Shown: positions 17,449-37,101 of the stretch, piece after piece | Numbering within the stretch: the first letter of the stretch is position 1 | Layout of the letters: each line of letters starts with the position of its first letter | Assembly (NCBI GenBank): GCA_035353595.1 | Contig: DAOPZW010000002.1 | Location: 1-47,477, forward strand | Length of the DNA stretch: 47,477 bases | Direction: 5' to 3' | Source: Elusimicrobiales bacterium | GTDB taxonomy: Bacteria > Elusimicrobiota > Elusimicrobia > Elusimicrobiales > UBA9959 | The notes under the pieces: model-generated | What the model saw: the letters and a program-made list of their open reading frames with translations, nothing else | Database searches by the model: none | What the model was told of the DNA's origin: nothing | Program-made: the position numbers and the translations under genes

Positions 17449-17712
17449 GGGTTCGGGGCGGCCGGGGTTTGGGCTCAGCGGGCACGGGGTCGCGCACACC
17501 GTGCGCGCCCCTCCCCACTCAGGCTCGGCGCTTACGCAGCCACGCATAAACCGCATAGCGGTTTTGCGCGGCCCCGGCTCGGCAATTTTCGCTGTAAAAT
17601 TGCCTCCGCCCTTGCGGCCCGGACGCGAGGCATAATTATGCCTCGCTCTAAAGCCGGGCCTCACCTCGCCTTCCGTGAGGGCCCGCTGAACCCAAACCCC
17701 GGCCGCCCCTCC
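17449..17712 (-). repeat. Nested-palindrome intergenic element, copy A (full length, inverted relative to copy C)
   Basis: The reverse complement aligns end to end with 25471-25738. Terminal arms are ggggcggccggggtttggg and cccaaaccccggccgcccc. It contains the 22-bp perfect palindrome gcgaggcataattatgcctcgc (17625-17646) and the hairpin ggcaatttt..aaaattgcc (17581-17604). Confidence 0.85.
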
Positions 17713-17768
17713 AGTGAGATGATCTGGGTGCTCGAAGAAAGAGAAGTCTTAGTTTTTAGGAATAAATA

Positions 17769-18218
17769 ATGATTATTGAAATTTGGACTAAAGAGAAGTA
17801 TGCGGGCAACGAAGGGGGCGCTTTTATCGGGCGGATGGCGCATGCGGGGCTTAAGGTGAAGGCGGCCCGCTTGTCGCGGCTTTATAAGGTGGAGGGGAAT
17901 TTTAACAGGAAAGAATTCGGAGCCCTGGCCGCGGACCTGCTTACGGACCCGATAACGGAGCGTTGTTCGCTGACGCCCGGGCAGGGCGGTCTTAAGGGGG
18001 GCTGGCGGGTGGAGGTATGGCTGAAGGATTCAGTTACGGATGTAATTGGCGAGAGCGTTAAAGAGGCTATTGGCGGGGTGGCCGGCAAAGTGCCGTCGGT
18101 TGTCAGGTTCGGGCATGCTTACTATGTCCGCTGTGATTCTGAAGTGAAATTGAGGAATGCCGTGGTTAAAACCCTGGTGAACGGGATAGTGAATAAATTT
18201 AAAATAGAAAAAATATGA
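17769..18218 (+). CDS. purS: Tandem (double) PurS-like FGAM synthase subunit
   Basis: 149 aa, about twice a canonical ~80-aa PurS. The second half (WRVEVWLKDSVTDVIGESVKEAI..VRFGHAYYV..LVNGIVNKFKIE) fits the PurS pattern. The first half repeats the pattern more weakly (IIEIWTKE..LSRLYKVEG..LLTDPITE). An ATGA overlap joins it to purL. Confidence 0.7.
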   Translation: MIIEIWTKEKYAGNEGGAFIGRMAHAGLKVKAARLSRLYKVEGNFNRKEFGALAADLLTDPITERCSLTPGQGGLKGGWRVEVWLKDSVTDVIGESVKEAIGGVAGKVPSVVRFGHAYYVRCDSEVKLRNAVVKTLVNGIVNKFKIEKI

Positions 18219-20596
18219 ACGACATACTTTCTTTCAACTCGCTGACGGGAAAAGAACTTGAGGCTCTGGATAAGGCCTGCGGCTGGTCGCTCAACGCGCT
18301 GGAACTGGCCGAGGTACAGCGCCAGTTCAGGAAGATGGGCAGGCAGCCGGCGCGCGGGGAATTGGAAACCCTGGCGCAAACCTGGTCCGAGCATTGCAAG
18401 CACAAGACTTTCTCCGGGCCGGTGGCATTCAGGTCGGGCGGGAAGGTAAAAAAGTATAAGAACCTCTTTAAGGAAACGATAGTAAAGGCCACCAGGCAGC
18501 TGAATAAAAAATGGTGCCTGTCCGTTTTTACGGATAATGCCGGGATAGTGGAGTTCGGCAGCAAAGGAAAATGGGGGCTGGCTTTCAAGGCCGAGACACA
18601 CAATCACCCCTGCGCGGTGGAGCCGTACGGCGGGGCCGAGACCGGCGTGGGCGGCGTGGTGCGCGATATCCTGGGCGTGGGCCTGGGCGCCAAGCCCGTG
18701 CTGAATACCGATAATTTCTGCTTCGGTTCCCTGGACAGTAAAAAGAAGCTGCCTAAGAATTCCCACCCGCCGGAGCGCATCATGCGCGGCGTGGTGGAGG
18801 GCGTGCGCGATTACGGCAACCGCATGGGCATTCCCACGGCGTCCGGCGGCATTTATTTCGACGACGGCTACCTGTTGAACCCGCTGGTCTATGTGGGCTG
18901 CGCGGGGCTGATCCCGGCGGATAAAATAGAGAAGCGGGTGTTGCCCGGGGACCTGATAGTTTCGATAGGCGGGCGCACCGGCCGCGACGGCATACACGGC
19001 GCGACTTTTTCTTCCGCCAATATCGACGAGGAAACTTCAGCCTCGGCCGTGCAGATAGGCCACGCGATAAACGAGAAGAAGACGCTGGACGTGCTGATGC
19101 GCGCCCGCGACCTGGGCCTTTACAATGCGGTGACCGACTGCGGCGCCGGCGGTTTCTCTTCGGCCATAGGCGAGCTGGGCTCGGAGACCGGCGCCCGGGT
19201 GCGCCTGGAAGCCGCGCTGCTCAAAGAAACGCGCATCGAGCCCTGGGAGATCTGGGTTTCGGAGTCGCAGGAGCGGATGATCCTTTCGGTGCCGGCCGGC
19301 AAGCTTAAAAAGCTGGAGGCCATACTTAAGGCCGAGAGCTGCGAATATTGCGTGCTGGGGACTTTCCCGGGCGACGGGCGGTTGCTGGTGACCTATAAAG
19401 ACGAAAAGGTGGTGGACCTGCCGATGTCCTTCCTGCACGGCGGCGTGCCCAACCCAGAAAAGCAGGCGGCGCAGCGCAAGGTTAAGATCTGCTCAGGCGT
19501 GCCCGCGCGGCCTTCAAAACAATACGGCCGGATCCTGCGCGAACTGCTGGCGCATCCCAATATCTGCTCGCGCCATTCCGTTATAACGCAGTACGACCAT
19601 GAGGTGCAGGGCGGCACGGTGATAAAGCCGCTGCAGGGGCCCAATGGCGACGGGCCCGGCGACGCGGCCGTGATCTGGCCTGTAGCCGCCACGCTGGATA
19701 TGACCGACTTCTCCGGCTTTGCCGTAACGCACGGTTTCAACCCGGCCGCCGGGAAGATAGATCCTTACCAGATGGCGCTGCACTCGGTGGACGAGGCGGT
19801 GCGCAACCTGCTCTGCGTGGGCGCCGAGATCTCGCGCACGGCCATCCTCGATAATTTCTGCGCCGCCAGCCCGCGCGACCCCGAAGTGATGGCCGACCTG
19901 GTGCGGGCCGCCGAGGGCTGCTATGACGCCGCCATGGGCTATGGCGCGCCTTTCATTTCCGGCAAAGACAGCTTCTACAACCAGGCCCGGGACGCCGAAG
20001 GCCGGGAGTATCCCATCCCCATTTCGCTGCTGATCTCCGCCACCGCCCCGGTTGAAGACATTCGTAAAGCCATAACCATGAACTTCAAAGAGGCGGGCCG
20101 CCCGGTGTACCTGGCCGGCATTGCCCGGCGGGGCATGGGCGGCTCGGTCTATAACGACGTGTATGAGTCCGGCAATAATTTCATCAGCCCGCTGGACATA
20201 AAGGCTGCGGTCAAACTTTATACGGCTATCCTTAGGGCCATAAAAGCCGGCTGCGTCAGCGCGGCGCACGACGTTTCCCAGGGCGGGCTGGCCGTGACGC
20301 TGGCCGAGATGGCCTTCTCGGGCGGTTTCGGCGCTGAAATAGATCTTTCCGGAGCCGGCAGGGATAAGGGCCTCAGCGCGCTGGAACTGCTGTTCGGCGA
20401 GAGCCCCGCGCGGCTGGCGCTGGAGGTGGTAAAAGAGCGCGAGGTGGAATTCCTCAAGATCGTAAAAGACCTGCCGGTGTTCGAGGCCGGTTATGTGAAA
20501 GAGGAACCGCTGCTGGCGGTCAGCGACGGCGGCGCGGAACTGTTCAGGGAAGATATCCTCGCGCTGAAAACTTGCTGGAAGCAGGAGCTGATATGA
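18215..20596 (+). CDS. purL: Phosphoribosylformylglycinamidine synthase subunit PurL (small type)
   Basis: 793 aa. WSEHCKHKTF, ETHNHPCAVEPYGGAETGVGGVVRD, GRDGIHGATFSS and ISGKDSFYN. Confidence 0.93.
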   Translation: MNDILSFNSLTGKELEALDKACGWSLNALELAEVQRQFRKMGRQPARGELETLAQTWSEHCKHKTFSGPVAFRSGGKVKKYKNLFKETIVKATRQLNKKWCLSVFTDNAGIVEFGSKGKWGLAFKAETHNHPCAVEPYGGAETGVGGVVRDILGVGLGAKPVLNTDNFCFGSLDSKKKLPKNSHPPERIMRGVVEGVRDYGNRMGIPTASGGIYFDDGYLLNPLVYVGCAGLIPADKIEKRVLPGDLIVSIGGRTGRDGIHGATFSSANIDEETSASAVQIGHAINEKKTLDVLMRARDLGLYNAVTDCGAGGFSSAIGELGSETGARVRLEAALLKETRIEPWEIWVSESQERMILSVPAGKLKKLEAILKAESCEYCVLGTFPGDGRLLVTYKDEKVVDLPMSFLHGGVPNPEKQAAQRKVKICSGVPARPSKQYGRILRELLAHPNICSRHSVITQYDHEVQGGTVIKPLQGPNGDGPGDAAVIWPVAATLDMTDFSGFAVTHGFNPAAGKIDPYQMALHSVDEAVRNLLCVGAEISRTAILDNFCAASPRDPEVMADLVRAAEGCYDAAMGYGAPFISGKDSFYNQARDAEGREYPIPISLLISATAPVEDIRKAITMNFKEAGRPVYLAGIARRGMGGSVYNDVYESGNNFISPLDIKAAVKLYTAILRAIKAGCVSAAHDVSQGGLAVTLAEMAFSGGFGAEIDLSGAGRDKGLSALELLFGESPARLALEVVKEREVEFLKIVKDLPVFEAGYVKEEPLLAVSDGGAELFREDILALKTCWKQELI

Positions 20597-21333
20597 AACC
20601 CAAAGCTGTGATCCTGCGCGGCACCGGCACCAATTGCGACATCGAAACCTTCAACTCCTTCAAATATGTGGGAGCTGAACCCGAGCTGGTGCACATAAAC
20701 CAGTTGCTGGCCGGAGAAAAGAAAGTGCTGGATTATGACCTGATGGCTTTCCCCGGCGGCTTCTCTTACGGCGACGACATCTCGGCCGGCAAGATCTACG
20801 CCGTGAAGATGGCGGCGTTGGCGGCCGATTTCGTGGCGTTCATCAAAGACCGCAGGCCTGTAATAGGCATCTGCAACGGCTTCCAGATCCTGGTCAAGAC
20901 CGGCTTCCTGCCGGAGAACCGCGCCAACGCCCAGACCTCCACGCTTTACACCAATGACTGCGGGCATTTTATGGCCAAGTGGATAAAACTGAAGGTGAAC
21001 AGGCACAGCCCCTGCATCTTCACAAAGGGCCTGCCCGAAGAAATAGAACTGCCGATAGCCAACGGCGAGGGGAAATTCATCGTAGAGGATAAAAAAGTGC
21101 TGGCCTCTATAACGGGCCGCAACCTGCACGCGCTGACTTACGCCGAGAATCCCAACGGTTCCATGCTGGACATCGCAGGCATAACCAATGCCGCCGGCAC
21201 CTGCTTCGGCCTGATGCCGCACCCGGAGCGCAATTTCTTCGCCTGGCAGCATCCCGACCGCCCCGCCGTTGCCCGCGAGACCGAGGCTGTCGGCTGCCAG
21301 TTCTTCAAGAACGCGGTGGAGTATGTGCGGTGA
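20593..21333 (+). CDS. purQ: FGAM synthase glutamine amidotransferase subunit PurQ
   Basis: GTNCDIE, PGGFSYGDD, GICNGFQIL (catalytic Cys) and MPHPER. ATG 20593 overlaps the purL stop (ATGA) and is preferred over the track start at 20572. Confidence 0.9.
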   Translation: MKPKAVILRGTGTNCDIETFNSFKYVGAEPELVHINQLLAGEKKVLDYDLMAFPGGFSYGDDISAGKIYAVKMAALAADFVAFIKDRRPVIGICNGFQILVKTGFLPENRANAQTSTLYTNDCGHFMAKWIKLKVNRHSPCIFTKGLPEEIELPIANGEGKFIVEDKKVLASITGRNLHALTYAENPNGSMLDIAGITNAAGTCFGLMPHPERNFFAWQHPDRPAVARETEAVGCQFFKNAVEYVR

Positions 21334-21394
21334 TGCCCCCTGCCGGTCCCGCAAGCGTTCGGTTGCCGGGAGACCGGACTGACATAACTTTAAT

Positions 21395-21417
21395 GGCGGC
21401 CAAGGTTTGGGCGGGCC
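21395..21417. repeat. Orphan arm fragment of the nested-palindrome element family
   Basis: ggcggccaaggtttgggcgggcc resembles the copy A arm ggcggccggggtttgggctcagcgggc, with no partner arm nearby. Confidence 0.5.
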
Positions 21418-21434
21418 GGATTTATCGTTTCTTT

Positions 21435-21575
21435 GGAGCGGGTGACGGGGATTTGGTGGAGCAAACCCTCACGGAGGCCGACGCTTGCGTAAGCGCGGAG
21501 GCCGAGTGGGGAGGGGCGAGCACGGTGTGCGAGACCCCGTGTTTGCGCAACCAAACCCACGGCACCCGCGAACCC
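21435..21575 (+). repeat. Nested-palindrome intergenic element, copy B (short form lacking the ~130-bp core module)
   Basis: It shares the left arm ggagcgggtgacggggatttggtggagcaaaccctcacgga and the right part gcgtaagcgcggaggccgagtggggaggggcgagcacggtgtgcgagaccccgtgtttgcgcaaccaaaccc with copies C and D. Confidence 0.8.
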
Positions 21576-21603
21576 TTGACAGTTCTGTAAGTTAAAGGAA
21601 AAT

Positions 21604-22959
21604 ATGTGTGGAATATTCGGGATAACTGATACTAAAGACGCGTGCAACCTGGCTTATGTCGGGCTGTTCACGCTGCAGCACCGCGGCCAGGAATCCGCCG
21701 GCATGGTGACAGACGACGGCGGGCAGCTGCGCCAGCACAATGCCATGGGCCTGGTCAGCGAAGTTTTCAGCAAAGACGCGCTGGCGTGGCTCAAGGGCCG
21801 CAGCGCCATAGGCCATATCCGCTATTCCACTACCGGCTCCAGCCATATCAAGAACGCCCAGCCGCTGGTGCTGAGTTCCTGCCTGGGCCATATCGCGGTG
21901 GCGCATAACGGGAACATCACCAACGCCGACGAGCTCAAAGAGCGGCTGCAGCGGGGCGGCTCAATCTTCCAGTCCACCAGCGACAGCGAAGTGATACTGC
22001 ACCTGGCCGCGAAGTACCGCGGCAGGAACCTTGAAGACACATTGGCAAAGAATTTGCCCAAGCTGAACGGGGCGTACGCCTTTTTATTCATGACGCCGGG
22101 GAAGGTTATAGGCGCGCGTGATCCCAGCGGCTACAGGCCGCTGGTGCTCGGCAAACTTGGGAAATCCTTCATCCTGTCCTCCGAAACCTGCGCCATCGAC
22201 GTGGCCGGCGGCAGGACCATACGGGAGATAGAGCCGGGCGAGATGGCGATAATAGAAAAAGGCAGGGTCCGTTTCCGCCGCTTCGCCCCGGCCCGGAGTT
22301 TTACCCGCTGCATCTTCGAACAGGTGTACTTCGCCAGGCCGGATTCGCTGGTGGCGGGCAGGACGGTGCAGACCGCGCGCTATGAGATCGGCGCGCTGCT
22401 GGCGGAAGAACTTAAGGGCGTGAAAGCCGACATCGTATCGGGCGTGCCGGACTCCGGCACGGTTTACGCCCTGGGGTATTCCAAGGGGTCAGGGATACCG
22501 TACCAGACGGTTTTTATGCGCAACCATTATACCGGCCGCTCCTTCATACAGCCGGACCAGCGCCTCAGGGAGTTCACCGCCCGGCTCAAGCTCGCGCCTA
22601 TCCGCGACGTGATAAAAGGCAAGAGCATCATCCTGGTGGATGATTCCCTGGTGAGGGGGACCACCTCGCGCAAGATCGTGAAAAGCCTTAAGGAGGCCGG
22701 CGCGAAAAAGGTGGCGATGGCCATCGCCTCGCCGCCTATTATCTCGCCGTGCTTTTACGGCATAGATACCCCGAATAAAGGGGAGCTTATCGCCAATAAA
22801 CTGTCGAAAGACAAGATCCGGAGGTTTATCGGCGCCGACGCGCTGCATTACCTCGGGCTTGAGAGCCTGGTCGCCGCCTGCGGAGAGCGCCGCGACAGTA
22901 ACTTCTGCACGGCCTGCTTTACGGGCAGGTACCCGAAGCCCGGCAAAGGGACTTTATGA
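21604..22959 (+). CDS. purF: Amidophosphoribosyltransferase
   Basis: Starts MCGIFGI (N-terminal nucleophile Cys). QHRGQESAGM, the PRPP loop ILVDDSLVRGTT, and C-terminal Cys residues consistent with an Fe-S type enzyme. Confidence 0.93.
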   Translation: MCGIFGITDTKDACNLAYVGLFTLQHRGQESAGMVTDDGGQLRQHNAMGLVSEVFSKDALAWLKGRSAIGHIRYSTTGSSHIKNAQPLVLSSCLGHIAVAHNGNITNADELKERLQRGGSIFQSTSDSEVILHLAAKYRGRNLEDTLAKNLPKLNGAYAFLFMTPGKVIGARDPSGYRPLVLGKLGKSFILSSETCAIDVAGGRTIREIEPGEMAIIEKGRVRFRRFAPARSFTRCIFEQVYFARPDSLVAGRTVQTARYEIGALLAEELKGVKADIVSGVPDSGTVYALGYSKGSGIPYQTVFMRNHYTGRSFIQPDQRLREFTARLKLAPIRDVIKGKSIILVDDSLVRGTTSRKIVKSLKEAGAKKVAMAIASPPIISPCFYGIDTPNKGELIANKLSKDKIRRFIGADALHYLGLESLVAACGERRDSNFCTACFTGRYPKPGKGTL

Positions 22960-24206
22960 ATGTGCTGATAATAGGAGCCGGAGCGCGCGAACACGCGCTA
23001 GGCTGGAAACTCGCGCAAAGCCCGCTGCTGGAAAAATTGTACGCTATACCCGCCGCGGCCGGTATGGCCGGACTTTCAGAATGCGCGGAGATAGCGCAGG
23101 ATGATTTTGAGAAAATATATGTTTTTTGCCGCGACAAAAATATAACGCTGGCGGTTGTCGGGCCGGAAGCCCCGCTGGCCAAGGGGGTAAGCGACTTTCT
23201 GACGGCGAAGGGAATAAAGGTTTTCGGCCCGCCGCAACAGGGCGCCATGCTCGAGGCCTCCAAACAGTTCGCCAAGGAATTCATGGACAGGAATTCCATC
23301 CCCACCGCCGCATTCTCCGTGCTTTTTTCCGCCGAGTTCGCGAAAGAAAAAATAAAAGCCAACAAGAAATACCCGGTGGTGGTAAAAGCCGACGGGCTGG
23401 CCGCCGGAAAGGGCGTGCGTATCTGCCGCAGCGAGGCCGAGGCGCTGGAGGCCGTTTCAGATTTTATGGAGAAAAGGATTTTCGGCTTTTCAGGCTCCAA
23501 AGTGGTGCTGGAGGAATTCCTGACCGGCAGGGAAGCTTCCGTCATGGCCCTGGTGGACGGCAACACCTTCCTGATGCTGCCGCCGGCCAGGGACCATAAG
23601 CGGCTGCTCGACGGCGACGCCGGCCCGAATACAGGGGGAATGGGCGCCGTCTGCCCCGTTGGTATTTCTCCTGCCGATCTTGAGACCATAAAAACCGAGG
23701 TGTTGCAGCGGTTCGTGGACGGTTTGAAAAAGGAGCGCATCCCCTTCCGGGGCGTGATCTTCGCCGGGCTGATGTTCACTCCGGGAGGGGTTAAGGTCCT
23801 GGAATTCAATGTCCGCTTCGGCGATCCGGAAACGCAGGCCATAATGCCGCTGGTAAAATGCGATCTGTTGGCACTGCTGGACGCCTGCGCAGACGGCCGG
23901 CTGGCCGGCAAGCAGCCGACGGTCTCGGCGGAGACCTGTGTAACGGTGGTGCTGGCCTCAGAAGGCTATCCTGAAAGCCCGGTGAAGGGGAAACTGATAA
24001 CCGGCCTGGACCAGGTCCCTCCCGGCGTCCTGGTCTTCCACTCCGGCACCGCCAAAAGAGACGGCGCCTGGCTAACCGCCGGCGGCCGCGTTCTTTCCAT
24101 AACCGCCACCGGTCCGGATCTGGAAAAGGCCCGCGCTAAAGTTTACAATGCCGTATCAAAGATACACTTTGAAGGAATGCAGTACAGAAAGGATATCGGG
24201 TTGTGA
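22956..24206 (+). CDS. purD: Phosphoribosylamine-glycine ligase
   Basis: MNVLIIGAGAREHAL, VVKADGLAAGKGV, GPNTGGMGA and EFNVRFGDPE. ATGA overlap with purF. Confidence 0.93.
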   Translation: MNVLIIGAGAREHALGWKLAQSPLLEKLYAIPAAAGMAGLSECAEIAQDDFEKIYVFCRDKNITLAVVGPEAPLAKGVSDFLTAKGIKVFGPPQQGAMLEASKQFAKEFMDRNSIPTAAFSVLFSAEFAKEKIKANKKYPVVVKADGLAAGKGVRICRSEAEALEAVSDFMEKRIFGFSGSKVVLEEFLTGREASVMALVDGNTFLMLPPARDHKRLLDGDAGPNTGGMGAVCPVGISPADLETIKTEVLQRFVDGLKKERIPFRGVIFAGLMFTPGGVKVLEFNVRFGDPETQAIMPLVKCDLLALLDACADGRLAGKQPTVSAETCVTVVLASEGYPESPVKGKLITGLDQVPPGVLVFHSGTAKRDGAWLTAGGRVLSITATGPDLEKARAKVYNAVSKIHFEGMQYRKDIGL

Positions 24207-24250: not shown

Positions 24251-24377
24251 CGGGGCGGCCGGGGTGTTCCCCTGCGAACCCGGGCAGAGGAAACCCTTGC
24301 GTCGGTTTCCCCCCAGCCGCTGCGGCTGGGGCCCCCTTTCCGCAACGGGTTCGCAGGGGAACACCCCGGCCACCCCG
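24251..24377. repeat. 127-bp palindromic element (copy E): perfect 25-bp inverted repeat enclosing two short hairpins
   Basis: ggccggggtgttcccctgcgaaccc (24257-24281) is the exact reverse complement of 24347-24371. The stem extends to 24251/24377 with one mismatch. Inner hairpins are at 24289-24310 and 24312-24330. The termini (cggggcggccgggg) resemble those of copy A. Confidence 0.85.
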
Positions 24378-25427: not shown

Positions 25428-25470
25428 TTAAATATAAGGGCTTTTGTAAGGAAATGGCAGGCAAATAATC

Positions 25471-25738
25471 GGAGCGGGTGCCGTGGGGGTGGTGCAGCAA
25501 ACCCTCACGGAAGGCGAGGTGAGGACCGGCTTTAGAGCGAGGCATAATTATGCCTCGCGTCCGGTCCGCAAGGGCGCAGGCAATTTTTACAGCGAAAAAT
25601 TGCCGAGCCGGGGCCGCGCAAAACCGCTATGCGGTTTATGCGTGGCTGCGTAAGCGCGGAGGCCGAGTGGGGAGGGGCGAGCACGGTGTGCGAGACCCCG
25701 TGTTTGCGGAACCAAACCCCCGGCAGGCCCCGCGAACC
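25471..25738 (+). repeat. Nested-palindrome intergenic element, copy C (full length, used as the reference orientation)
   Basis: 268 bp. It has left and right arms, the 22-bp palindrome at 25537-25558, the hairpin ggcaattttt..aaaaattgcc at 25579-25604, and an aaaccgc-tat-gcggttt hairpin. Confidence 0.85.
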
Positions 25739-25776
25739 TGCAAGCCTGCCATTTCACTTTTCTTCCAGGAGACCTA

Positions 25777-28172: not shown

Positions 28173-30431
28173 ATGCGCACAATTGTAAAACTTATACTGG
28201 CCGGCCTGGTGGCGGCGGGGGCGAATTCCGCGGCGTCGGCCGAGAACGCGCCGCAGAAACTTTTCCATATTGAGAACGACAAGCGGGTGGGCAACTTCAG
28301 CCTGCTGCAGGACGATTCCATAATAGCGATCCGGGAAAGAACGCGCCTGTGGAGCTATGACGGGAATACCGGCGCTAAACTCTGGGAGACCAAGGTCAAG
28401 GGCGGCGTGGACGACGGCATGCACCTGGTCTGGAACGATAAGCTTTATCTGATGCCCCTAAAGAAAGGCATGGTAGCTTTTGATGTCAACACCGGCAAGC
28501 AGGTCTGGGAAACGAAGCTCGACGTCAAGATGAAGGATTTCTACAAATCCTACAGCTACAAGGATAATTTTTTGCTGGAATTCGAGAAGGACATGATCTC
28601 GCTGAACCCGGATACCGGCGAGGTAGCCTGGCGAACTTCGGACATGGAATATTCCAAGGCGGCCGGCAAAGCCGGGGCGCAGCGGCTGTATTATATCAGC
28701 AAGGACTGGGGCAGCAGGATACTGCTGCTGGGCAAGAAAGGCCCGAGCCTCATAGACGCCAAGACCGGCAAGGTGCTGTGGAAGTCCGAGCATGACTTCT
28801 CCGACGAAATTGAAAAGCCGGTGCTGTTTACCAGCGCCGGCCAGGAGGCGGCGCTGCTGCTTTACGAGGAAGGCGCTTCCAGCATTGACCTGAAGACCGG
28901 CCAGGAAGCCTGGTTCATCAAGGACGAGTTCGAGGACGCCACCGGGCTGGTCCAGTTCGAGAAAGACGGCGGCAAATACTGCCTGTTCGCCTTCGGCAAA
29001 GAGCTGGTCATGTTCGACGCCCTGTCCGGAAAGATCCTCTGGCGGACCGGCAAGGACTCCGACCTGAAGGGGCGGCCTTACATGGTGCAGGCCGACGGCG
29101 GTAACCTGCTTATCCTTACCACGCGCAACCTGGGGACGAAGGGCGGCCTCCTCACCCTGTTCCGCGCCAGTTTCGATACCGGCGGCGTCGCGTGGAAGCG
29201 CGACCTGGCGTTCAGCAAGCAGATGCACATGAACTTCAAGATCCCCATCTTCGGGATCCGGATGCGCAACAGCGGCATCTGGTACCGGGACCCGATCAAG
29301 ACCCCCAACGGGCTGCTTTTTCAGACCTGGGGCACGGCGACCAGAAAGCTCGACGATAAAGGCGAGCCGGGAGAGAAGGAGGGCGAAGGCCTTATCATGG
29401 TCAACCCCGAAACCGGGGACGTGGTGTGGCGCAGTTACTTCAAAGTGTTCGACACCGTTTCCGCCGACGCGCAGAAAATACTCGCCGGCGAGAGCGAGGC
29501 CGGCATAGCCGGCAAAGGCCGCAACGCCATGTCGGCCAACGACGTCGGTTATCAGAACATGATCCCCGCGCCGGTAATAACCGGGGACGTCGTCTACGCC
29601 ATGGGCAATGAAGGCGTGCTTAAACTGGAGCTGGCTACCGGCAAGACCCTCTGGGAATCCCCCAAGTACGGGTATGTCTCTAAGATAATGGTGGACAACG
29701 GCGTTGTTTACGGTTTCCAGGGCAGCGCTTCCTGGGCTTATACCGCCGACGCAAAAAAGGAAAAGGCCGACGACGTTATCATCCAGTCCAAGAAGCAGGG
29801 CTATTTCAGCCTGGACGCCGCCAGCGGCAAGGAACTGTGGAATATCAAGAGCTCGAAAAAGCCGTATTCCATCTTTAACGCCATCGTCGGTAAGGATGGG
29901 AAGGACCTGTTCCTGTGCGACGGCAGGTACCTGCGCCGCCTGGACCTGACGCCCGCTACCAAGGGCTTCGCCTGGGAGCTGGACCTGAAAAAGTCAGATA
30001 TCGGCGAAATAGGCGCCGAAGAGGGCGTAGTCTTCAAGGAGAGGGGCACCACCTTCTCCAATTACGGCAGCTACACTGAAAAAACCACCTCCTACGACGT
30101 GAGCATGCAGCACGGCGCCTGGCAGCTGGCCAACGGCGACCTGCTGGTGATCGCGGCCGAAGGCCCGGCCCGGATCAGCGCCGACGGCAAGATAAAGTGG
30201 AAGACCGAATGGGACTGGAAGCGCAACAAGATCAACTTCACCCCCACCAGGCTGCAGGCCGACAAGTACCTGGTTTACCAGTACAAGAAGAAGATCTTCT
30301 GCCTGGACCTGGAGACCGGCGAGATAAAATGGATGACCAAGGAAGCCAAGAACTCGGAGATAGAGTTCGACGCTAAAGAACAGAAGATGTTCATCGTTGA
30401 CGACGACGAGGTCAGCGCCTACGCCATTTAA
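28173..30431 (+). CDS. Secreted PQQ-like (BamB-like) beta-propeller repeat protein
   Basis: Signal peptide MRTIVKLILAGLVAAGANSAASA. At least 10 recurrences of the (T/S)G(K/E/Q)..W motif (TGAKLWET, TGKQVWET, TGEVAWRT, TGKVLWKS, SGKILWRT, TGDVVWRS, TGKTLWES, SGKELWNI, TGEIKWMT). AAGGAGG SD. Confidence 0.8.
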   Translation: MRTIVKLILAGLVAAGANSAASAENAPQKLFHIENDKRVGNFSLLQDDSIIAIRERTRLWSYDGNTGAKLWETKVKGGVDDGMHLVWNDKLYLMPLKKGMVAFDVNTGKQVWETKLDVKMKDFYKSYSYKDNFLLEFEKDMISLNPDTGEVAWRTSDMEYSKAAGKAGAQRLYYISKDWGSRILLLGKKGPSLIDAKTGKVLWKSEHDFSDEIEKPVLFTSAGQEAALLLYEEGASSIDLKTGQEAWFIKDEFEDATGLVQFEKDGGKYCLFAFGKELVMFDALSGKILWRTGKDSDLKGRPYMVQADGGNLLILTTRNLGTKGGLLTLFRASFDTGGVAWKRDLAFSKQMHMNFKIPIFGIRMRNSGIWYRDPIKTPNGLLFQTWGTATRKLDDKGEPGEKEGEGLIMVNPETGDVVWRSYFKVFDTVSADAQKILAGESEAGIAGKGRNAMSANDVGYQNMIPAPVITGDVVYAMGNEGVLKLELATGKTLWESPKYGYVSKIMVDNGVVYGFQGSASWAYTADAKKEKADDVIIQSKKQGYFSLDAASGKELWNIKSSKKPYSIFNAIVGKDGKDLFLCDGRYLRRLDLTPATKGFAWELDLKKSDIGEIGAEEGVVFKERGTTFSNYGSYTEKTTSYDVSMQHGAWQLANGDLLVIAAEGPARISADGKIKWKTEWDWKRNKINFTPTRLQADKYLVYQYKKKIFCLDLETGEIKWMTKEAKNSEIEFDAKEQKMFIVDDDEVSAYAI

Positions 30432-30490: not shown

Positions 30491-30583
30491 TGGGTAACTA
30501 TCGCCGGGACCGCGCCGCGGTAATTGCGGCGATCCGCCCGGTGTTTACTATAACTCAGGTTTTGTGTTAGAATTAATCGCAAG

Positions 30584-30632: not shown

Positions 30633-30646
30633 GCGGAGGCGCGACT

Positions 30647-32050
30647 ATGCCGGCACAACGCAACCTGGAAGCGGTGAACCCTTTGGACGGGCGCTACGCC
30701 TCTAAAATGGGCAGGCTCGGCGCCCTCACCGGGGAGGGCGGGCTGGCGAGGTACCGCACCCTGGTAGAATGCCGGTACCTGGCGAAGCTGGCCGCCACCC
30801 GCGGCCTGAAAATACGGCGGCTGACCCGCACTGAACTCTCCTTCCTTGAGAAACTCCCGCTGCTCGGCGAAAAGGACGTGCGGCATATCGTAGCCATCGA
30901 AGAAACCGGCGCGGGCGGCGTCGCGGCCACGCGGCACGACGTCAAAGCCGTGGAATATTTCATCAAAGAGAAGCTTTCGCGCACTTCGCTGCGCGATATA
31001 AAAGAGTTCGTTCATTTCGGCCTTACCTCCGAGGACGTAAATAATATTTCCTACGCGTTGATGCTGCGCGACTGCCTGGCCGTTGAAATTATTCCGGCCT
31101 TCGAGGAAATACTGGCCGCGCTGGACGCGCTGGCGCTGAAATACGCCGACACACCGCTGCTGGCCCGCACGCACGGCCAGCCCGCGGTGCCCACCACCTT
31201 CGGCAAGGAATTCCGCGTCTTCCACGCCCGGCTGCTGCGGCAGACGGAGCAGCTGAAGGCCGCGCATATCTGCGCCAAGCTCAACGGCGCCTCCGGCAAT
31301 TATAACGCGCACGCGGCCGCCTTTCCCGGGACTGACTGGGAAAAGTTCTCGCGGGAATTCGTGGAAAGTTTCAACACCGGCCGCGGCCCCGCGCTGAGCC
31401 ATAACCCTTTCACCACGCAGATAGAGCCGCACGACAGCTACGCCGAACTTTTCGACGCGCTGCGGCGCGCCGATACCATCCTGCTGGCTTTCTGCCAGGA
31501 TATGTGGCGTTATATCTCCGCCGGGCTGGTGGTGCAGCGGGCCGTGGCGGGGGAAATAGGCTCTTCCACCATGCCGCAGAAGGTGAACCCGATCCACTTC
31601 GAGAACGCCGAGGGCAACCTGGGGCTGGCCAACGCCCTGCTCGGTTTCTTTTCGGCGAAGCTGCCGGTTTCGCGCCTGCAGCGCGACCTGTCGGACTCTA
31701 CCGTGGAACGCAATTTCGGCGCGGCCTTCGGTTACAGCCTGGCCGCCTGCCGTTCGGTCCTGACCGGCCTGGGGCGTGTTTCGGTGAACGCGGCGGCGGC
31801 CCGCCTGGAGCTGGAGAGCCATCCCGAAGTGCTGGCCGAAGGCATTCAGACCATCCTGCGGCGCGAGGGCGAGACCGGGGCCTATGAGCTGTTGTGCAAA
31901 TTTACGCGCGGGCGCAGCGTCGGCGCGGCGGAACTGGGGACTTTTATCGACGGGCTTAAACTTAAACCCGCGGTAAAAGCGGAACTTAAGCGGCTTTCGC
32001 CCCTGAACTATACGGGGCTAGCGGCCAAACTTGCGAAATTCAAGCGTTAA
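30647..32050 (+). CDS. purB: Adenylosuccinate lyase
   Basis: NPLDGRYASK, HFGLTSEDVNN, ARTHGQPAVPTTFGKE and GSSTMPQKVNP (the fumarate-lyase signature). ATG 30647 has a GGAGG SD; the track start at 30590 lies inside the leader hairpin. Confidence 0.92.
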   Translation: MPAQRNLEAVNPLDGRYASKMGRLGALTGEGGLARYRTLVECRYLAKLAATRGLKIRRLTRTELSFLEKLPLLGEKDVRHIVAIEETGAGGVAATRHDVKAVEYFIKEKLSRTSLRDIKEFVHFGLTSEDVNNISYALMLRDCLAVEIIPAFEEILAALDALALKYADTPLLARTHGQPAVPTTFGKEFRVFHARLLRQTEQLKAAHICAKLNGASGNYNAHAAAFPGTDWEKFSREFVESFNTGRGPALSHNPFTTQIEPHDSYAELFDALRRADTILLAFCQDMWRYISAGLVVQRAVAGEIGSSTMPQKVNPIHFENAEGNLGLANALLGFFSAKLPVSRLQRDLSDSTVERNFGAAFGYSLAACRSVLTGLGRVSVNAAAARLELESHPEVLAEGIQTILRREGETGAYELLCKFTRGRSVGAAELGTFIDGLKLKPAVKAELKRLSPLNYTGLAAKLAKFKR

Positions 32051-32060
32051 GGAGAAAAAC

Positions 32061-33089
32061 ATGCCTGTTGATATAGTTGTCGGCGGCCAGGCCGGGGACG
32101 AGGGAAAGGGCAAGATCTCGGCTTATCTCGCCAGTAAAAACAATTACGAATATTCCATACGCGTGGGCGGCCCCAACGCCGGGCATACTGTTTTTTTTAA
32201 GGATAAGATCTATACCCTGAAGACCATGCCATCCGGCTTCGTGAACCCGCGCACCAAACTGGTGCTGGGCGCCGGCACTTACATTATTACCGACTGGCTG
32301 GAAAAAGAGATGCAGATGACCGGCGGCGCGGGCCGGCTGATCATAGACCCGCACGCGGTGATAATTGAACCGCGCCACACCGCGGCCGAGCGCGCCGACG
32401 CGCGTATGATGGGAAAAATAGGCAGCGTGGGCACCGGCCTGGGCGCCGCGGTGCGCGACAGGGTGGACCGCAAAAAACTGCGCTTCGCCAAGGACGAGCC
32501 GCGCCTTAAAAAATACGTCAAGGACGTTCCCGAACTGCTTAACAAGGCCCTGGCCAGAGGCGCCGGCCTGCTGCTGGAGGGCACGCAGGGCATGAAGCTT
32601 TCCGTGCTGCACGGCGAGTACCCTTTCGTCACTTCGCGCGACACCACTGCCGCCACCTTTATGGGCGAGGCCGGCCTCGGCCCCAAGTACGCCGGCGACG
32701 TGTACGCGGTGTTCAAGCCCTATGTCACCCGCGTTGGCCCCGGCCTGGTAGCCAGCGAGATGCGCGACAGGAAAAAACTAGCCAAGTACCACACCGCCGG
32801 CCGCGAGGTGGGCAGCGTCAGCGGCCGCCTGCGGCGGGTGGGGGGCTTCGAGATGGACGTGGCCCGGCAGACCGTGATGATAAATTCAGCCACGCAGCTG
32901 GCCATCACGCATGTCGACATGCTGGGCGGGGCGGATATTTCCAAGGGCGTAAAAAGCTTCACGGGCGAGGCGAAGAAATTCATGGCCACGCTGGAGAAGG
33001 TCTGCTCCGTCTACCCGTACCCCAAAGTGCGGCTGGTCTCTTACGGTCCCGGCCTGTTCGACGTGCTGGACCTGAAGCGGGGAAAATAG
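32061..33089 (+). CDS. purA: Adenylosuccinate synthetase, short (~340 aa, archaeal-like) form
   Basis: VVGGQAGDEGKGKI (P-loop), GPNAGHTV, GSVGTGLG and LLEGTQG. 342 aa from ATG 32061, with an AAGGAG SD. Confidence 0.85.
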   Translation: MPVDIVVGGQAGDEGKGKISAYLASKNNYEYSIRVGGPNAGHTVFFKDKIYTLKTMPSGFVNPRTKLVLGAGTYIITDWLEKEMQMTGGAGRLIIDPHAVIIEPRHTAAERADARMMGKIGSVGTGLGAAVRDRVDRKKLRFAKDEPRLKKYVKDVPELLNKALARGAGLLLEGTQGMKLSVLHGEYPFVTSRDTTAATFMGEAGLGPKYAGDVYAVFKPYVTRVGPGLVASEMRDRKKLAKYHTAGREVGSVSGRLRRVGGFEMDVARQTVMINSATQLAITHVDMLGGADISKGVKSFTGEAKKFMATLEKVCSVYPYPKVRLVSYGPGLFDVLDLKRGK

Positions 33090-33177
33090 TTCCAGGGCGG
33101 GCGCCGCCCGGAGCAGAGACAGCAATTAGTCTGAAAACTGTCTTTTATCCGGCCGCGGCGCGGTCCGTTAAGGCTCC

Positions 33178-34416
33178 ATGTTCGAAATATCAGTGCTTGC
33201 CGCAGTGTTCCTGCTCATAGCCGTGCGCCAGGTAGGGGCGCTGCGTTTTGAGATCTGGCAGGTCATGTGCGGCGGGGCGGCCGCCGTGTTGCTGGCGGGC
33301 GGGATAAGCCCCGCGGCGGCGCTGAGGGCCATAGACGCCGACGTGATGGTTTTCCTTTTCGGCATGTTCGCCGCCGGGCAGGTTTTAGAACTGAGCGGCT
33401 GGCTGGCCCACGCCAAGTACAATGTGTTCAAGCGGGCGCGCACTGAGGAAGGCCTGCTGCTGCTGCTGGTGTTCTTCATGGGCGCGGCTTCGGCCGCGCT
33501 GATGAACGACACGCTGGCAATAATCGGCACGCCGGTGGCGCTGCTGCTGGCCCGCAAGCACGGCATCTCCCCCAAGGCCCTGCTGCTGGCGCTGGCTTTT
33601 TCGATCACCGTCGGCAGCGTGATGAGCCCCATCGGCAACCCGCAGAACCTGCTGGTGGCGGTGAAGGGTGGGATCGCCGCCCCTTTCCTGACATTCCTGA
33701 AATACCTGGCCGTTCCCACCTTGCTGAACCTGTGCGCCGTATTCCTGCTGGTGCGGCATTTTTACCGGGAGGAATTCACCGCCGACAGGCTGGCCCATTC
33801 CCAGGAGCCGGTAAAAGACAAGGCGCTGGCCCGGCTGGCCAGGGTGACCGCCGCGGTGCTGGGCATCATGATAGCGGCGAAAATAGCACTGGCCTATATT
33901 TCTCCCGCGCTGGATTTCCGCCTTACCTGGATAGCGCTGGCTGCCGCGGCGCCCGGGCTGCTGTTCAGCCCGCGCCGCCTGGAGCTGCTGCGCCGGACGG
34001 ACTGGAGCACGCTGGCTTTCTTCGCGGCCATGTTCGTCCTGATGCAGGCCGTCTGGGATACGGGCGTCTTCCAGGGGCTTATCGCCGGTTCCGGCGCGGA
34101 ACTTCACGGGGTGGGGCCCGTTATGGCGGTAAGCGTGGTCCTGAGCCAGTTCATTTCCAACGTGCCGCTGGTGGCGCTTTACCTGCCCGTGCTGAAGCAT
34201 TCCGGCGCCGGCACACCCGAGCTGATGGCGCTGGCGGCCGCTTCAACTTTTGCCGGCAACCTGTTCATCCTGGGCGCGGCCAGCAACGTGATAATAATCC
34301 AGAACGCCGAGAAAAAGGCCGGCCAGACCATAACCTTCACGGAGTTCGCACGCATAGGGATACCGCTTACTTTCATAAATGGCATAATATACTGGCTCTG
34401 CATAAAGTTCACCTGA
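33178..34416 (+). CDS. ArsB/NhaD-superfamily anion permease (YbiR/CitMHS-like)
   Basis: About 10-12 hydrophobic helices. An SPIGNPQNLL motif. Internal two-fold repeat architecture. Confidence 0.7.
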   Translation: MFEISVLAAVFLLIAVRQVGALRFEIWQVMCGGAAAVLLAGGISPAAALRAIDADVMVFLFGMFAAGQVLELSGWLAHAKYNVFKRARTEEGLLLLLVFFMGAASAALMNDTLAIIGTPVALLLARKHGISPKALLLALAFSITVGSVMSPIGNPQNLLVAVKGGIAAPFLTFLKYLAVPTLLNLCAVFLLVRHFYREEFTADRLAHSQEPVKDKALARLARVTAAVLGIMIAAKIALAYISPALDFRLTWIALAAAAPGLLFSPRRLELLRRTDWSTLAFFAAMFVLMQAVWDTGVFQGLIAGSGAELHGVGPVMAVSVVLSQFISNVPLVALYLPVLKHSGAGTPELMALAAASTFAGNLFILGAASNVIIIQNAEKKAGQTITFTEFARIGIPLTFINGIIYWLCIKFT

Positions 34417-34428
34417 AAAGGGCAAAAA

Positions 34429-35946
34429 ATGACCGTTCCCACCGGGAAAGACGAGCGCAGGAAGGACATGAAAGAGTTCTTTAATTTCATGGTCTTTCCC
34501 TTTTCGTTGGCAGTAATAAATTCCGCTTTTTTTAAAATGGCCATGGTCAGTTTAACCGGGCTTCCCGGCAGCCAGAAATACCTGGTGCATGTCAGTTCCG
34601 CCGGCTGGCTGGGGTCCGATTTCGGCTTTTCATTCGCCCTGATGATCTGCCTGGTCTATCTCTGGGGCCGGCCGGCTTATTTATATGTGCGGCAGCCCAC
34701 GGAACAGCTCAAAGAGATCCTGCGGCGCAGGATCGGCAATGTTTACCGGGACGCCCTGCTGATGCTGGTGCTGGTGCAGGCTGCCGCGTTCGCTATGCTT
34801 TCTGTAACGCCCGGCCTGGTCTCAAGAGCGGAACTTGCCGCCGCCGGGGTGTCCTTCTTTGCCCAGGCCGCCATGCTGGTGGTCTATATCGATTATCATC
34901 TGTCCGGTCAAAAGAACCTGATGCAGGCGCTGTACTCGGCCGAAGAATTATCCCGCCCCAAAGGCGGATTTTCCATCCCGGTATACATAAAACTCTCCAT
35001 GCTGATAATCGGGTTCGCGATAATCCCGTTCCTGCTGGTGGGCATTGCGGCCTCCAAACAGGTGCCCTGGGAACAGCTTAATCCGTACCTGATCTGGATG
35101 CTTTTTATTTCCGGCATCGTGCTGCTGCACGGTATCAATAACGTTTATTGCGGCATACAGAAACCCCTGGACGGCCTTATAGGCAGGATGAAGAACGTCG
35201 CCGGGGGCGATTATTCCAAGACCCGCATCTATTTCTCCGATGAAGTGGCCGCCCTGAAGACCGGCTTCAACGAGATGGTGGACGGGCTCAGGGAGCGCGA
35301 AGAGCTGCAGGACACCTTCGGCAAGTATCTTTCGATAGAAATAGCCAGGGAGCTGCTAAATAACAAGAAGGTGAACCTGGGCGGGGAGGACATGGAGGCC
35401 GCCGTGATGTTCTGCGACATCCGCAACTTCACCCCGCTCAGCGAGAAGCTTTCCGCCGCCGGGCTGGTAGAGTTCCTGAATAATTATTTCCGGTATGTGA
35501 CGCCGGCCATCACCGCCCACAACGGCGTCATAAACAAGTTCATCGGCGACGCCGTAATGGCTATCTATACCCCGATGCTCGGCTCGCATAACTTCGCGCT
35601 GGACGCCGTGCGCTCCGCCGTGGAGATGCGCACGGCGCTGGCGGAATACAACGCCTCCGGCGGCGCGCCGGGCAGGGTGGAGTTCGGCATCGGCATACAT
35701 TCCGGCAGGCTGGTGGGGGGTAATATCGGCACCCTTTCGCGGCTGGAATTCACTTTTATCGGCGACACCGTGAATATCGCTTCCCGCCTGGAATCTAAGA
35801 CCAAGGACCTGGATACCGATATCCTGGTTTCTCAGCCGGTGCTCGGGGGCCTGGGCGCGGACCGGGCCGGGTTCAGCTTTGAAAGCGTCGGCCGGGTCGC
35901 GCTGAAAGGCAAGGCCGAGCCGATGGAACTTTACAAGGTCCTCTGA
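34429..35946 (+). CDS. Membrane-anchored class III adenylate/guanylate cyclase with HAMP domain
   Basis: Six predicted TM helices. HAMP-like PLDGLIGRMKNVAGGDYS..EVAALKTGFNEMV. Cyclase core VMFCDIRNFTPLSE, FIGDAVMAIY, GIHSGRLVGGNIG and FIGDTVNIASRLES. Confidence 0.85.
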   Translation: MTVPTGKDERRKDMKEFFNFMVFPFSLAVINSAFFKMAMVSLTGLPGSQKYLVHVSSAGWLGSDFGFSFALMICLVYLWGRPAYLYVRQPTEQLKEILRRRIGNVYRDALLMLVLVQAAAFAMLSVTPGLVSRAELAAAGVSFFAQAAMLVVYIDYHLSGQKNLMQALYSAEELSRPKGGFSIPVYIKLSMLIIGFAIIPFLLVGIAASKQVPWEQLNPYLIWMLFISGIVLLHGINNVYCGIQKPLDGLIGRMKNVAGGDYSKTRIYFSDEVAALKTGFNEMVDGLREREELQDTFGKYLSIEIARELLNNKKVNLGGEDMEAAVMFCDIRNFTPLSEKLSAAGLVEFLNNYFRYVTPAITAHNGVINKFIGDAVMAIYTPMLGSHNFALDAVRSAVEMRTALAEYNASGGAPGRVEFGIGIHSGRLVGGNIGTLSRLEFTFIGDTVNIASRLESKTKDLDTDILVSQPVLGGLGADRAGFSFESVGRVALKGKAEPMELYKVL

Positions 35947-35951
35947 CCGCT

Positions 35952-36785
35952 ATGCTCCCGCTGCTTTACCTTACCGACGGCAGGAACAGGGACCTTATCC
36001 CCGACGAGGCCGGCATTGACCGCGCTTTCAGGGCCGCCGGGATCGAAATTGCCGTCAAGGTCTGGGACGAGACCGACTGGAACTCCTACGCGAACATCCT
36101 GATCCGGACCCCCTGGGATTACGCTTTGAAGACGGGGCTTTTCCTGGAGAAGCTCAGCGGCGCCGCGCAGCGGGGGGCGAACATCCTCCATCCCGAAAAG
36201 ACCGTGAGATGGAACATCGACAAGAGCTACCTCGTCGAGCTGTACCGCAAAGGGCACAAGGTGGTTCCCACCTATATCGAAGATGAGTTCGGGCCGGCAA
36301 CGCCGGGAAAATACTTCAAAAAGCACGGGACCCTGGTGCTGAAGCCGCGTATCGGCGCCGGCGGCAGGGATACGTTCAAAGTGTCCCCTGAAAGCGCTCC
36401 GTCGTCGTACGCGGCCTTGCGCGGCCGTTCCGTCCTGGTGCAGCCCTTCATCCCGGAAATAGAGACCGGCGGAGAGTACTCCTTCATATTTTTCGGCGGG
36501 GAATTCTCCCACGCGGTGCTGAAAAAAGCCCGCGGCGGAGAATTCCGCGTGCAGGACAGGCACGGCGGCACGGTGGAGGCTTACTCCCCGTCAGCAGCCG
36601 AGATCGGTGAGGCCGCGGCCCTGCTGCGCGGCGGCCCGGATACAGTTTATGCCCGGGTGGACGCCGTTAAACGCGGCGGGGAACTGCTGCTGATGGAGCT
36701 TGAGATCCTCGAGCCGGAGCTGTTCTTCAGGTTTTCCCGCGACGGCATGGCCCGCTTCGCCGCCGCCGTGCGGAAGAGATTATGA
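35952..36785 (+). CDS. ATP-grasp domain protein (RimK/glutathione-synthetase-like fold), substrate unknown
   Basis: LKPRIGAGGRDTF, LVQPFIPEI..GEYSFIFF, FRVQDRHGG and LLMELEILEPELFF. No clear SD; the ATG is 5 nt after the cyclase stop. Confidence 0.65.
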   Translation: MLPLLYLTDGRNRDLIPDEAGIDRAFRAAGIEIAVKVWDETDWNSYANILIRTPWDYALKTGLFLEKLSGAAQRGANILHPEKTVRWNIDKSYLVELYRKGHKVVPTYIEDEFGPATPGKYFKKHGTLVLKPRIGAGGRDTFKVSPESAPSSYAALRGRSVLVQPFIPEIETGGEYSFIFFGGEFSHAVLKKARGGEFRVQDRHGGTVEAYSPSAAEIGEAAALLRGGPDTVYARVDAVKRGGELLLMELEILEPELFFRFSRDGMARFAAAVRKRL

Positions 36786-36840
36786 AAATGGACTAAAAAG
36801 GCCCCAAACCTTCCGGTTACTCCCCATATTCAGAGAAAAC

Positions 36841-37101
36841 GGAGTGGCAGCCGGGGTTTGGTGGAGCAAACCCTCACGGAGGCCGACGCTTGCGTAAGCG
36901 CGGAGGCCGAGTGGGGAGTGGCGGCCACGGTGAGGCCCGGCTTTAGAGCGAGGCATAATTATGCCTCGCGTCCGGGCCGCAAGGGCGGAGGCAATTTTTA
37001 CAGCGAAAAATTGCCGAGCCGGGGTCGCGGAAAACCGCTATGCGGTTTATCCGTGACTGCGCGACCACGTGTTTGCGCAACCAAACCCCGGTTGCCACGA
37101 C
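36841..37101 (+). repeat. Nested-palindrome intergenic element, copy D (full length, rearranged module order)
   Basis: Arms gtggcagccggggtttgg and ccaaaccccggttgccac. The 22-bp palindrome is at 36948-36969 and the hairpin at 36990-37015. The gcgtaagcgcggaggccgagtggggag module precedes the core here, whereas it follows the core in copies A and C. Confidence 0.85.

Follow-up and report, generated by a model that had tools for sequence, protein, structure and literature searches.

What are the strongly folding repeats that separate genes of the purine biosynthesis (pur) cluster in an Elusimicrobiales bacterium (assembly GCA_035353595.1), and do they serve the genes between which they lie? The window, i.e., the whole stretch of DNA analyzed here, consists of positions 1 to 47,477 of contig DAOPZW010000002.1. 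A first-pass annotation of this sequence had described five related copies (A to E) of one element, whose full-length form was made of terminal arms and a core, as well as an orphan arm. The five copies and the orphan arm were present where it had placed them, and the gene names that it had assigned to the open reading frames (ORFs) of the window were correct. The full-length form, however, is a composite of a scaffold and a smaller element, here called Y, that was inserted independently. Y is regarded as separate from the scaffolds because it also occurs alone, in other kinds of scaffold, and in genes. Our best explanation, to which we assign a probability of about 60%, is that the repeats represent two layers of non-autonomous, structure-defined mobile DNA specific to the Elusimicrobia, of the repetitive extragenic palindromic (REP)/bacterial interspersed mosaic element (BIME) or IS200/IS605-derivative kind. 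Many copies, filled and empty orthologous sites, exact junctions, insertions in genes, and compensatory stems with invariant loops were observed, as described below. Loci outside the window are referred to by L numbers.

Y and the scaffolds that carry it

Y is a discrete unit of 123–127 nt with three hairpins (H1, H2 and H3), and contains a 22-nt palindrome. Its boundaries were defined by three pairs of empty and filled sites. In the first pair, the unoccupied sequence CACGGTG^TGCG in copy B (21521–21531; the caret marks the insertion point) corresponds to the filled site in copy D. In the second, an empty scaffold of another type (type 3) in L077 reads GGGGTG^TATGCC, and has its filled counterpart in L054, with filled copies reading GGGGTG[Y]TATTCC. 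In the third, the scaffold between purC and purS in L025 reads CACGGTG^TGGCCGAGCG, with L084 as the filled site. In these pairs Y extends from AGG to GTGAC and lies exactly 3′ of GTG, with neither a target duplication nor terminal inverted repeats. Alignments of Y showed no inverted termini either, and no duplication was seen in 34 distinct flank contexts. The three bases 5′ of Y were GTG in 33 of these 34 contexts and GCG in the remaining one, and position −4 was a G in 22 of them, while the 3′ flanks were unrelated to each other.

The scaffolds of copies A–D are of one type, denoted X-type, which an alignment of B, C and D resolved into a left arm, hairpin Xa, hairpin Xb and a right arm. Copy B (21435–21575, plus strand), in the purQ–purF gap, is an empty X-type scaffold in which the outer arms and an inner stem (GCAAAC/GTTTGC) lead to a three-way junction carrying Xa (21476–21503, loop TTGCGTAA) and Xb (21513–21538, loop CACGGTGTG). 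The orphan arm-like fragment GGCGGCCAAGGTTTGGGCGGGCC lies upstream of B (21395–21417, plus strand), within about 100 nt of additional sequence that is absent from relatives. Copy C (25471–25738, plus strand), between purM and the purNH fusion, carries a 125-nt Y (25522–25646, plus strand) in the Xa loop, preceded by GTG at 25519–25521, and is flanked by a further outer inverted repeat, AAATGGCAGGC/GCCTGCCATTT, at 25452–25462 and 25744–25754. Copy A (17449–17712, minus strand), in the purC–purS gap, is inverted relative to the pur genes and likewise has Y in the Xa loop; this Y is 123 nt long (17539–17661, minus strand; AGG...GTGGC), and its GTG is at 17664–17662. Copy D (36841–37101, plus strand), between an ATP-grasp gene and xdhC, has a 125-nt Y (36933–37057, plus strand; AGG...CCGTGAC) at CACGGTG^TGCG in the Xb loop. 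The position of Y thus differs between scaffolds, Xa in A and C and Xb in D. The Y of D is identical in sequence to copies in other genomes (L015, L029 and L045).

When the copies were compared with the window by blastn, A (on the minus strand) was 88% identical to C across 260 nt, and B was 95% identical to C over 92 nt and 91% identical to D over 93 nt but lacked the core of about 125 nt; D consisted of the modules of C arranged in another order. Copy E (24251–24377, strand not assigned), in the purD–purM gap, has only a terminal motif of 14–16 nt (GGGGCGGCCGGGGT, GGGGCGGCCGGGG) in common with A, and represents a sister family of scaffolds, the E-type. E itself is empty, and folds into a 26-bp outer stem with two inner hairpins, at 24289–24310 (loop CTTGCGTC) and 24311–24331. 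Other E-type copies were found in L063 (91% identical to E), L042, L061 and, in the same purD–purM gap, L025; those in L028, L034, L063 and L069 carry Y.

The folds of the copies were far better than those of shuffled sequences, with z-scores of −5.0 for B, −11.0 for E and −8.2 for Y when folded as DNA, and −5.9 for C when folded as RNA. A covariance model of Y gave exactly three matches in the window, all with E values of ~1e-29: the Y of A (17539–17664, 149 bits, E 2.7e-29), of C (150 bits, E 1.7e-29) and of D (152 bits, E 6.4e-30). Taken together, these results show that the elements are not products of chance.

Many further copies were found outside the window, and they are conserved in relatives, which goes against the refutation that the first-pass annotation had itself set out (no copies elsewhere in the genome and none in relatives). 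The 22-nt palindrome was present at 18 loci in 12 of 185,579 species-representative genomes, and every one of these loci with a named taxon belonged to the Elusimicrobia. A looser Y pattern retrieved 60 metagenome loci, for a total of about 80 Y copies. Every copy is complete, with H1, H2 and H3 in about 125 nt, and none is split by a gene. Thirteen copies end at contig ends, as would be expected of a repeat that breaks assemblies. The recovered copy numbers are modest, e.g., six copies in the loci of one large metagenome-assembled genome (MAG). No match to Y was found in viral contigs (two scans) or plasmids (blastn). The window had no Rfam matches in a scan at gathering scores, and permissive scans of the elements and three loci returned only sub-threshold chance matches. 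Literature searches for Elusimicrobia palindromic repeats and for three core sequence strings yielded nothing relevant. As far as Rfam, the collections searched and the searchable literature show, this set of repeats across the Elusimicrobia was previously undescribed, in agreement with the first-pass annotation, which had not recognized the sequence.

Y resides in the Xa or Xb loops of X-type scaffolds, in E-type scaffolds, in two further types of scaffold, in plain intergenic DNA, and in coding genes. X-type, E-type, type-3 and type-4 scaffolds, Y, and a small module called Z form mosaics in varied combinations. Z, which is about 24 nt long and forms the hairpin GTCGCTNCGCTCCAC, is nested in Y just after H2 and also occurs in X-type scaffolds (L009, 5239–5388; L019, 6892–7041; L031, 3651–3800; L007 and L016, near 3911 and 6850; L087, 10970–11189), which makes for at least three levels of nesting.

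The claim that the repeats never lie inside a gene is correct for the window, but not elsewhere. Eleven of 78 Y loci (L006, L012, L020, L021, L033, L046, L051, L052, L064, L077 and L080) are in or beside genes for Schlafen group 3-like helicases (DUF2075, PF09848), at no fewer than seven different positions; examples are sites that immediately precede the P-loop strand or that follow the P-loop helix or the Walker B motif VDE. Y is mostly in the sense orientation in the helicase genes, and antisense copies occur in genes. The 123-nt subfamily of Y makes an open insert of 41 codons in these genes, and the reading frame runs on past Y in L064, whereas the others are truncated or frameshifted. 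Y is also present in gene remnants. The Schlafen-like helicase genes are insertion targets of Y. In L077, an empty type-3 scaffold of about 140 nt (~8960–9100, minus strand) also occurs as an in-frame insertion of 47 codons, directly ahead of the P-loop strand of a Schlafen-like helicase; that helicase gene also contains Y further downstream.

Several features had suggested that Y might be a group II- or group III-like intron, namely a 5′ GUGAG, a bulged A 8 nt before its 3′ end, AC as its last two bases, and the occurrence of Y as 126 nt in frame at conserved helicase motifs. An intron of this kind would contain its own 5′ GUGYG, end in AY, have a bulged A 7–8 nt from the 3′ end, and include the catalytic domain V. 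The intron reading was rejected: all empty sites retain the GTG, which is therefore part of the target rather than of Y, and the Val codon is preserved when the proteins are aligned. Moreover, no hairpin resembles domain V, and genes contain antisense copies of Y.

Variable stems and invariant loops

Covariation in Y was analyzed on 54 distinct copies for the three hairpins and a short stem. Paired bases occupied 99.2% of the cells, and 18 of the 43 pairs had changes on both sides. None of 500 shuffles reached the observed value, and slid controls were about 40% paired. The Y of C, for example, has the compensatory variant GGACCGG/CCGGTCC in stem P1, and the 22-nt palindrome, which has an AT-rich center, stays perfect through double changes (GCGAGG..CCTCGC to GCACGG..CCGTGC). 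Two features of hairpin H3 never vary: a G·T wobble and, eight bases from the 3′ end, a bulged A. An alternative pairing that would close H1 and H2 (CCCGGC/GCCGGG) was rejected, as it had no covariation support in the GGCGGGG subfamily.

The core of the X-type scaffold was analyzed on 24 copies from many genomes, and folds into the inner stem and the three-way junction with Xa and Xb. It is 88% paired, with compensatory changes in 20 of 30 pairs, and neither its junction bases nor its two loops (TTGCGTAA and CACGGTGTG) vary. Even at orthologous sites, the outer arms of different copies share almost no sequence, yet they remain complementary. Mismatches in the 24 copies were biased, with 46 G·A/A·G against 13 pyrimidine–pyrimidine mismatches, and folding favors the forward strand over its complement by about 9 kcal/mol per copy. 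Together with the G·T wobble and the bulged A in H3 of Y, this strand asymmetry is consistent with a single-stranded form of the elements.

[quoted passage not shown] The inverted arms of 25–45 bp and the small size, non-coding nature and multiple copies of the elements would all fit a MITE, as would the recurring terminal motifs GGGG(C/T)GGC and, in several copies, an outer (C)GAGATGCCAAGTC; one copy, B, is also lineage-specific. However, a transposase that binds double-stranded terminal repeats would conserve their sequence rather than their pairing, and the arms conserve only the latter. No target-site duplication was visible at A, B, C, D or E or in relatives, but the ends of the scaffolds are not sharply defined, and duplications could not be delimited by comparison with orthologous empty gaps, as the spacers do not otherwise align. 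No parent insertion sequence whose ends match was found in the window or the related loci covered (about 560 kb), and Y itself has neither inverted repeats nor a duplication. We therefore consider MITEs of this kind unlikely. The invariant loops, drifting stems and mild asymmetry fit recognition of a folded single strand, as opposed to a double-stranded DNA transposase acting on terminal repeats.

The elements could also be read as domesticated host sites that selection, not mobility, has maintained, and to which nucleoid proteins, gyrase or a recombinase would bind, as has been proposed for BIMEs. Such protein-binding sites are possible for the palindrome, which is perfect over 22 bp, AT-rich in the center, still perfect after double changes, and conserved across species, and REP and BIME elements do bind IHF, gyrase and Pol I (PMC6006769). 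As an account of the whole set, however, this is very improbable: the elements are patchily present at orthologous sites, copies lie in genes and gene remnants, the recovered copy numbers are modest, and the data point to no particular host protein.

An asymmetric internal loop, 5′-GGA against 3′-GA, is common to the base of Xa in X-type scaffolds (21474–21476 and 21504–21505 in B) and the base of H2 in Y (36987–36989 and 37016–37017 in D), and shows little or no variation in either alignment. The two kinds of element may share it as a recognition feature. A canonical kink-turn was ruled out, because the bulge is too short.

Gain and loss in the pur gaps

The window genes purE, purC, an ORF with a PurS domain, purL, purQ, purF, purD, purM, the purN–purH fusion, purB and purA were confirmed, as were the ATP-grasp gene and xdhC on either side of D. 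Homologues with 71–88% identity to PurM were all from Elusimicrobia where named. The pur region was syntenic down to 79% PurM identity (L024–L026, L087 and L088) and broken up at 71–72% (L089 and L090).

The gaps occupied by A, B, C and E in the window vary widely in these relatives. The purQ–purF gap, which in the window contains B and the additional ~100 nt, is only 3–19 nt in L024, L025, L026, L087 and L088, so that B is specific to the lineage of the window. Between purC and purS, where the window has A, L025 and L026 have an inverted X-type scaffold without Y, L087 has one with Y in the Xb loop, and L024 and L088 have no element (gaps of 62 and 37 nt, respectively). Between purM and purNH, where the window has C, L024, L025, L026 and L087 have a forward X-type scaffold without Y, L088 is empty (46 nt), and the genes overlap in L089. 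In the purD–purM gap, finally, L025 has an E-type scaffold like the window, L026 and L088 have an inverted X-type scaffold, and L024 and L087 have 9–38 nt. The last three gaps are thus each empty in at least one relative. The covariance model that detected three Y copies in the window detected none in the pur regions of L024–L026. Judged from these comparisons, elements come and go, and two lineages independently acquired Y in orthologous scaffolds.

The first-pass annotation had attributed every unusually long gap in the pur region to the repeats. This was borne out for the four long gaps that lie between purC and purNH, whereas no member of the family was found in the gaps that follow purNH (227 nt) and xdhC (238 nt). 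It had also proposed that the copies act as mRNA processing sites or partial terminators that set the stoichiometry of the pur enzymes. Such a role is unlikely and was unsupported by the present data: the gaps are empty (3–62 nt) in close relatives, the elements occur in both orientations relative to transcription, as had been noted for the window and is also seen elsewhere, and a terminator scan found no T-run after any copy and called none of them terminator-like. The elements are not intrinsic terminators, and the copies in the pur cluster are best read as tolerated passengers in intercistronic spacers. REP elements slow 3′ exonucleases, and by analogy the hairpins of these elements could do so in the mRNA as a by-product.

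The best terminator-like site of the pur region is a hairpin, GGCCGGGTGAAGTGTCACCCGGCT followed by TCTTCTTTTT, that overlaps the purC stop codon (17388–17421). It is kept in five relatives with or without an adjoining repeat element, and is independent of A. Just to the right of B, immediately upstream of purF, there is a promoter-like sequence, TTGACA-16-GAAAAT (21576–21603; 10 of 12 matches), and the insertion of B may have brought or created the −35-like box.

These observations also bear on the main alternative, that the elements are functional structured RNAs, either cis-acting sites for stability or processing of the pur polycistronic mRNA or, for Y, a multi-copy small RNA gene. It has this standing because the covariation is very strong and Y is highly conserved, indeed nearly identical, across species. 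The invariant loops and junction bases, a GNRA-like GCAA, the recurrence of the GGA/GA internal loop in X-type scaffolds and Y, and the recurrence of a forward X-type scaffold at purM–purNH in five related genomes would also be expected of a functional RNA. On the other hand, the elements are found in both orientations relative to the flanking genes (A versus C and D in the window), the same gaps are empty in relatives, Y is inserted in coding genes and in other repeats, no T-run terminator follows the elements, and none matches an Rfam family. The covariation of the hairpins is equally expected of single-stranded DNA substrates. We thus regard functional RNA as distinctly unlikely, and mobile DNA as the better description of the elements in the pur gaps.

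Other features of the window were also noted. The purS ORF (17769–18218) encodes 149 residues, about twice the usual length, of which only residues 80–147 form the PurS domain; it is 148–149 residues long in all relatives examined. The purNH–purB interval contains a gene for a 752-residue PQQ-like β-propeller protein (28173–30431, plus strand), in place of which five relatives encode a PAS/histidine kinase on the other strand, indicating a local gene replacement. At the start of the window, 99–4310 encodes a 1403-residue protein of PKD/Ig-like and SBBP β-propeller repeats, and its DNA has many diverged direct repeats at a spacing of about 260–280 nt or multiples thereof.

Possible mobilization and comparison with known systems

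How might such elements move? In the preferred reading, two layers of non-autonomous mobile DNA, the first layer would consist of the scaffolds (X-type and E-type), 125–160 nt in length, in which a long outer stem leads to a three-way junction with two small hairpins. Y would form the second layer, inserting 3′ of GTG without duplication, often in the exposed loop of a scaffold hairpin, and the composites of scaffold and Y would then spread as units. Both would be moved in trans as folded single strands, most likely by a structure-specific enzyme of the HUH/Y1 type encoded elsewhere in the genome.

Several observations weigh against this reading. As had been noted before, no transposase, REP-associated tyrosine transposase (RAYT) or integrase was found among the ORFs of the window. 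Nor was a Y1/HUH transposase seen in the approximately 560 kb around the 78 other Y loci, although this was a weak check, consisting of BLAST with two Y1 sequences (IS608 TnpA and E. coli YafM), clustering of ORFs, and spot checks against Pfam. The BLAST searches, a weak test with these queries, gave only chance matches, and the only recurrent ORF clusters at the 78 loci were artefacts of translated Y, large paralogous families (ABC transporters and Omp85), and the Schlafen-like helicase genes. None of the Y loci examined had Y-like left and right ends with a gene between them. MAGs often lack insertion sequences. A RAYT-type mobilizing gene is typically present in a single copy, far from most of the repeats (PMC3116915; PMC6006769).

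Further points against the preferred reading come from the elements themselves. Neither a target nor a duplication could be defined for the scaffolds, and the sporadic mismatches in Y are balanced (11 G·U versus 9 A·C), which leaves a few fixed positions, the G·T wobble and the bulged A of H3, to account for its strand asymmetry. Between species with PurM identities of 70–87%, Y retains an identity of at least 90%, which could also reflect selection for a host function. The subfamily of Y follows the type of the host scaffold, which means that many copies spread as composites, with perhaps 15, not 80, independent insertions of Y. In addition, the hairpins of Y directly abut its ends, while those of IS608 are about 10–19 nt from the cleavage sites.

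The closest known systems include the non-autonomous derivatives of the IS200/IS605 family (palindrome-associated transposable elements), with their "peel and paste" transposition, of which Y bears the signature. IS200/IS605 elements transpose as single strands, and have subterminal hairpins and a conserved target tetranucleotide that flanks the left end (PMC6006769). Like them, Y lacks terminal inverted repeats and target duplications, inserts 3′ of a fixed short motif (GTG, usually GGTG) that remains part of the flank, has conserved hairpins at both ends, prefers sites that would be single-stranded, i.e., hairpin loops, and has seamless empty sites. Unlike them, it has a third, variable hairpin in the middle, its outer hairpins reach the very ends instead of lying some nt inside, its target is apparently only 3–4 nt, and no TnpA/TnpB partner was found in the window and the ~560 kb covered by the weak test.

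The first-pass annotation had pointed to a formal resemblance to REP, BIME and MITE-type elements, with which we agree. A REP unit is a short hairpin of 20–65 nt with a GT[AG]G tetranucleotide 0–2 nt 5′ of the stem (PMC6006769). Like REP, BIME and REPIN elements, the present repeats are extragenic palindromic units that form multi-module mosaics, conserve structure more than sequence, occur in both orientations, and are found between co-transcribed genes and at gene ends. They differ in being branched and 125–270 nt long rather than 20–40 nt, and in lacking a GT[AG]G tag at the foot of the hairpin; the GTGA 5′ of stem P1 in Y includes the GTG of the target. The recovered copies are far below the hundreds typical of REPs, and no RAYT flanked by copies was seen.

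The 41-codon open insert in the Schlafen-like helicase genes, with the frame continuing in L064, recalls the Rickettsia palindromic elements (RPE), palindromic repeats of about 100–150 bp that can sit in frame in protein-coding genes (PMC10969869). RPEs are found in many unrelated genes, whereas Y is in one gene family, mostly truncated, and the lineages and sequences are unrelated. Pneumococcal BOX elements and MITEs of the Correia/ERIC type are, like the repeats described here, modular and strongly folding intergenic repeats within operons (PMC10969869). In the present elements, by contrast, the stems diverge through compensatory changes, and the loops of one element can house another. Members of the BOX and Correia/ERIC families keep their sequence, and TA duplications are present at Correia elements. 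Integron attC sites are folded single strands recognized by their structure, in which unpaired bases set the active strand, and by analogy structure rather than sequence may be what is recognized here. Unlike attC sites, these elements are branched and dispersed, with no integrase, no cassette array and no R′/R″ core sites.

A further, rather unlikely, explanation is that the Elusimicrobia possess an unrecognized system for mobilizing folded single strands, in which Y would colonize the loops of branched hairpin scaffolds, inserting seamlessly after GTG, and the enzyme moving all of them would not be a recognizable transposase. Schlafen-like nuclease-helicases, in whose genes Y is strikingly overrepresented, may be linked to such a system. 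If so, their genes may be a preferred target, or they may be defense genes that are knocked out by the element.

For those working with these genomes, the repeats disrupt Elusimicrobia assemblies made from short reads and give rise to spurious ORFs, and they should not be taken for regulators of the pur operon. They can be annotated with the covariance model and the consensus. The elements add a well-defined repeat ecosystem to a poorly studied and mostly uncultured phylum, and provide a clean example of a "parasite of a parasite", with exact empty and filled sites, stems conserved in structure only, and invariant loops. The structure-only stems and invariant loops point to an enzyme that reads structure. 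Should this mobilizing enzyme, or a link to the Schlafen-like helicases, prove to be new, the interest of the system would be higher, and a new enzyme would be of interest for the chemistry of single-strand DNA insertion.

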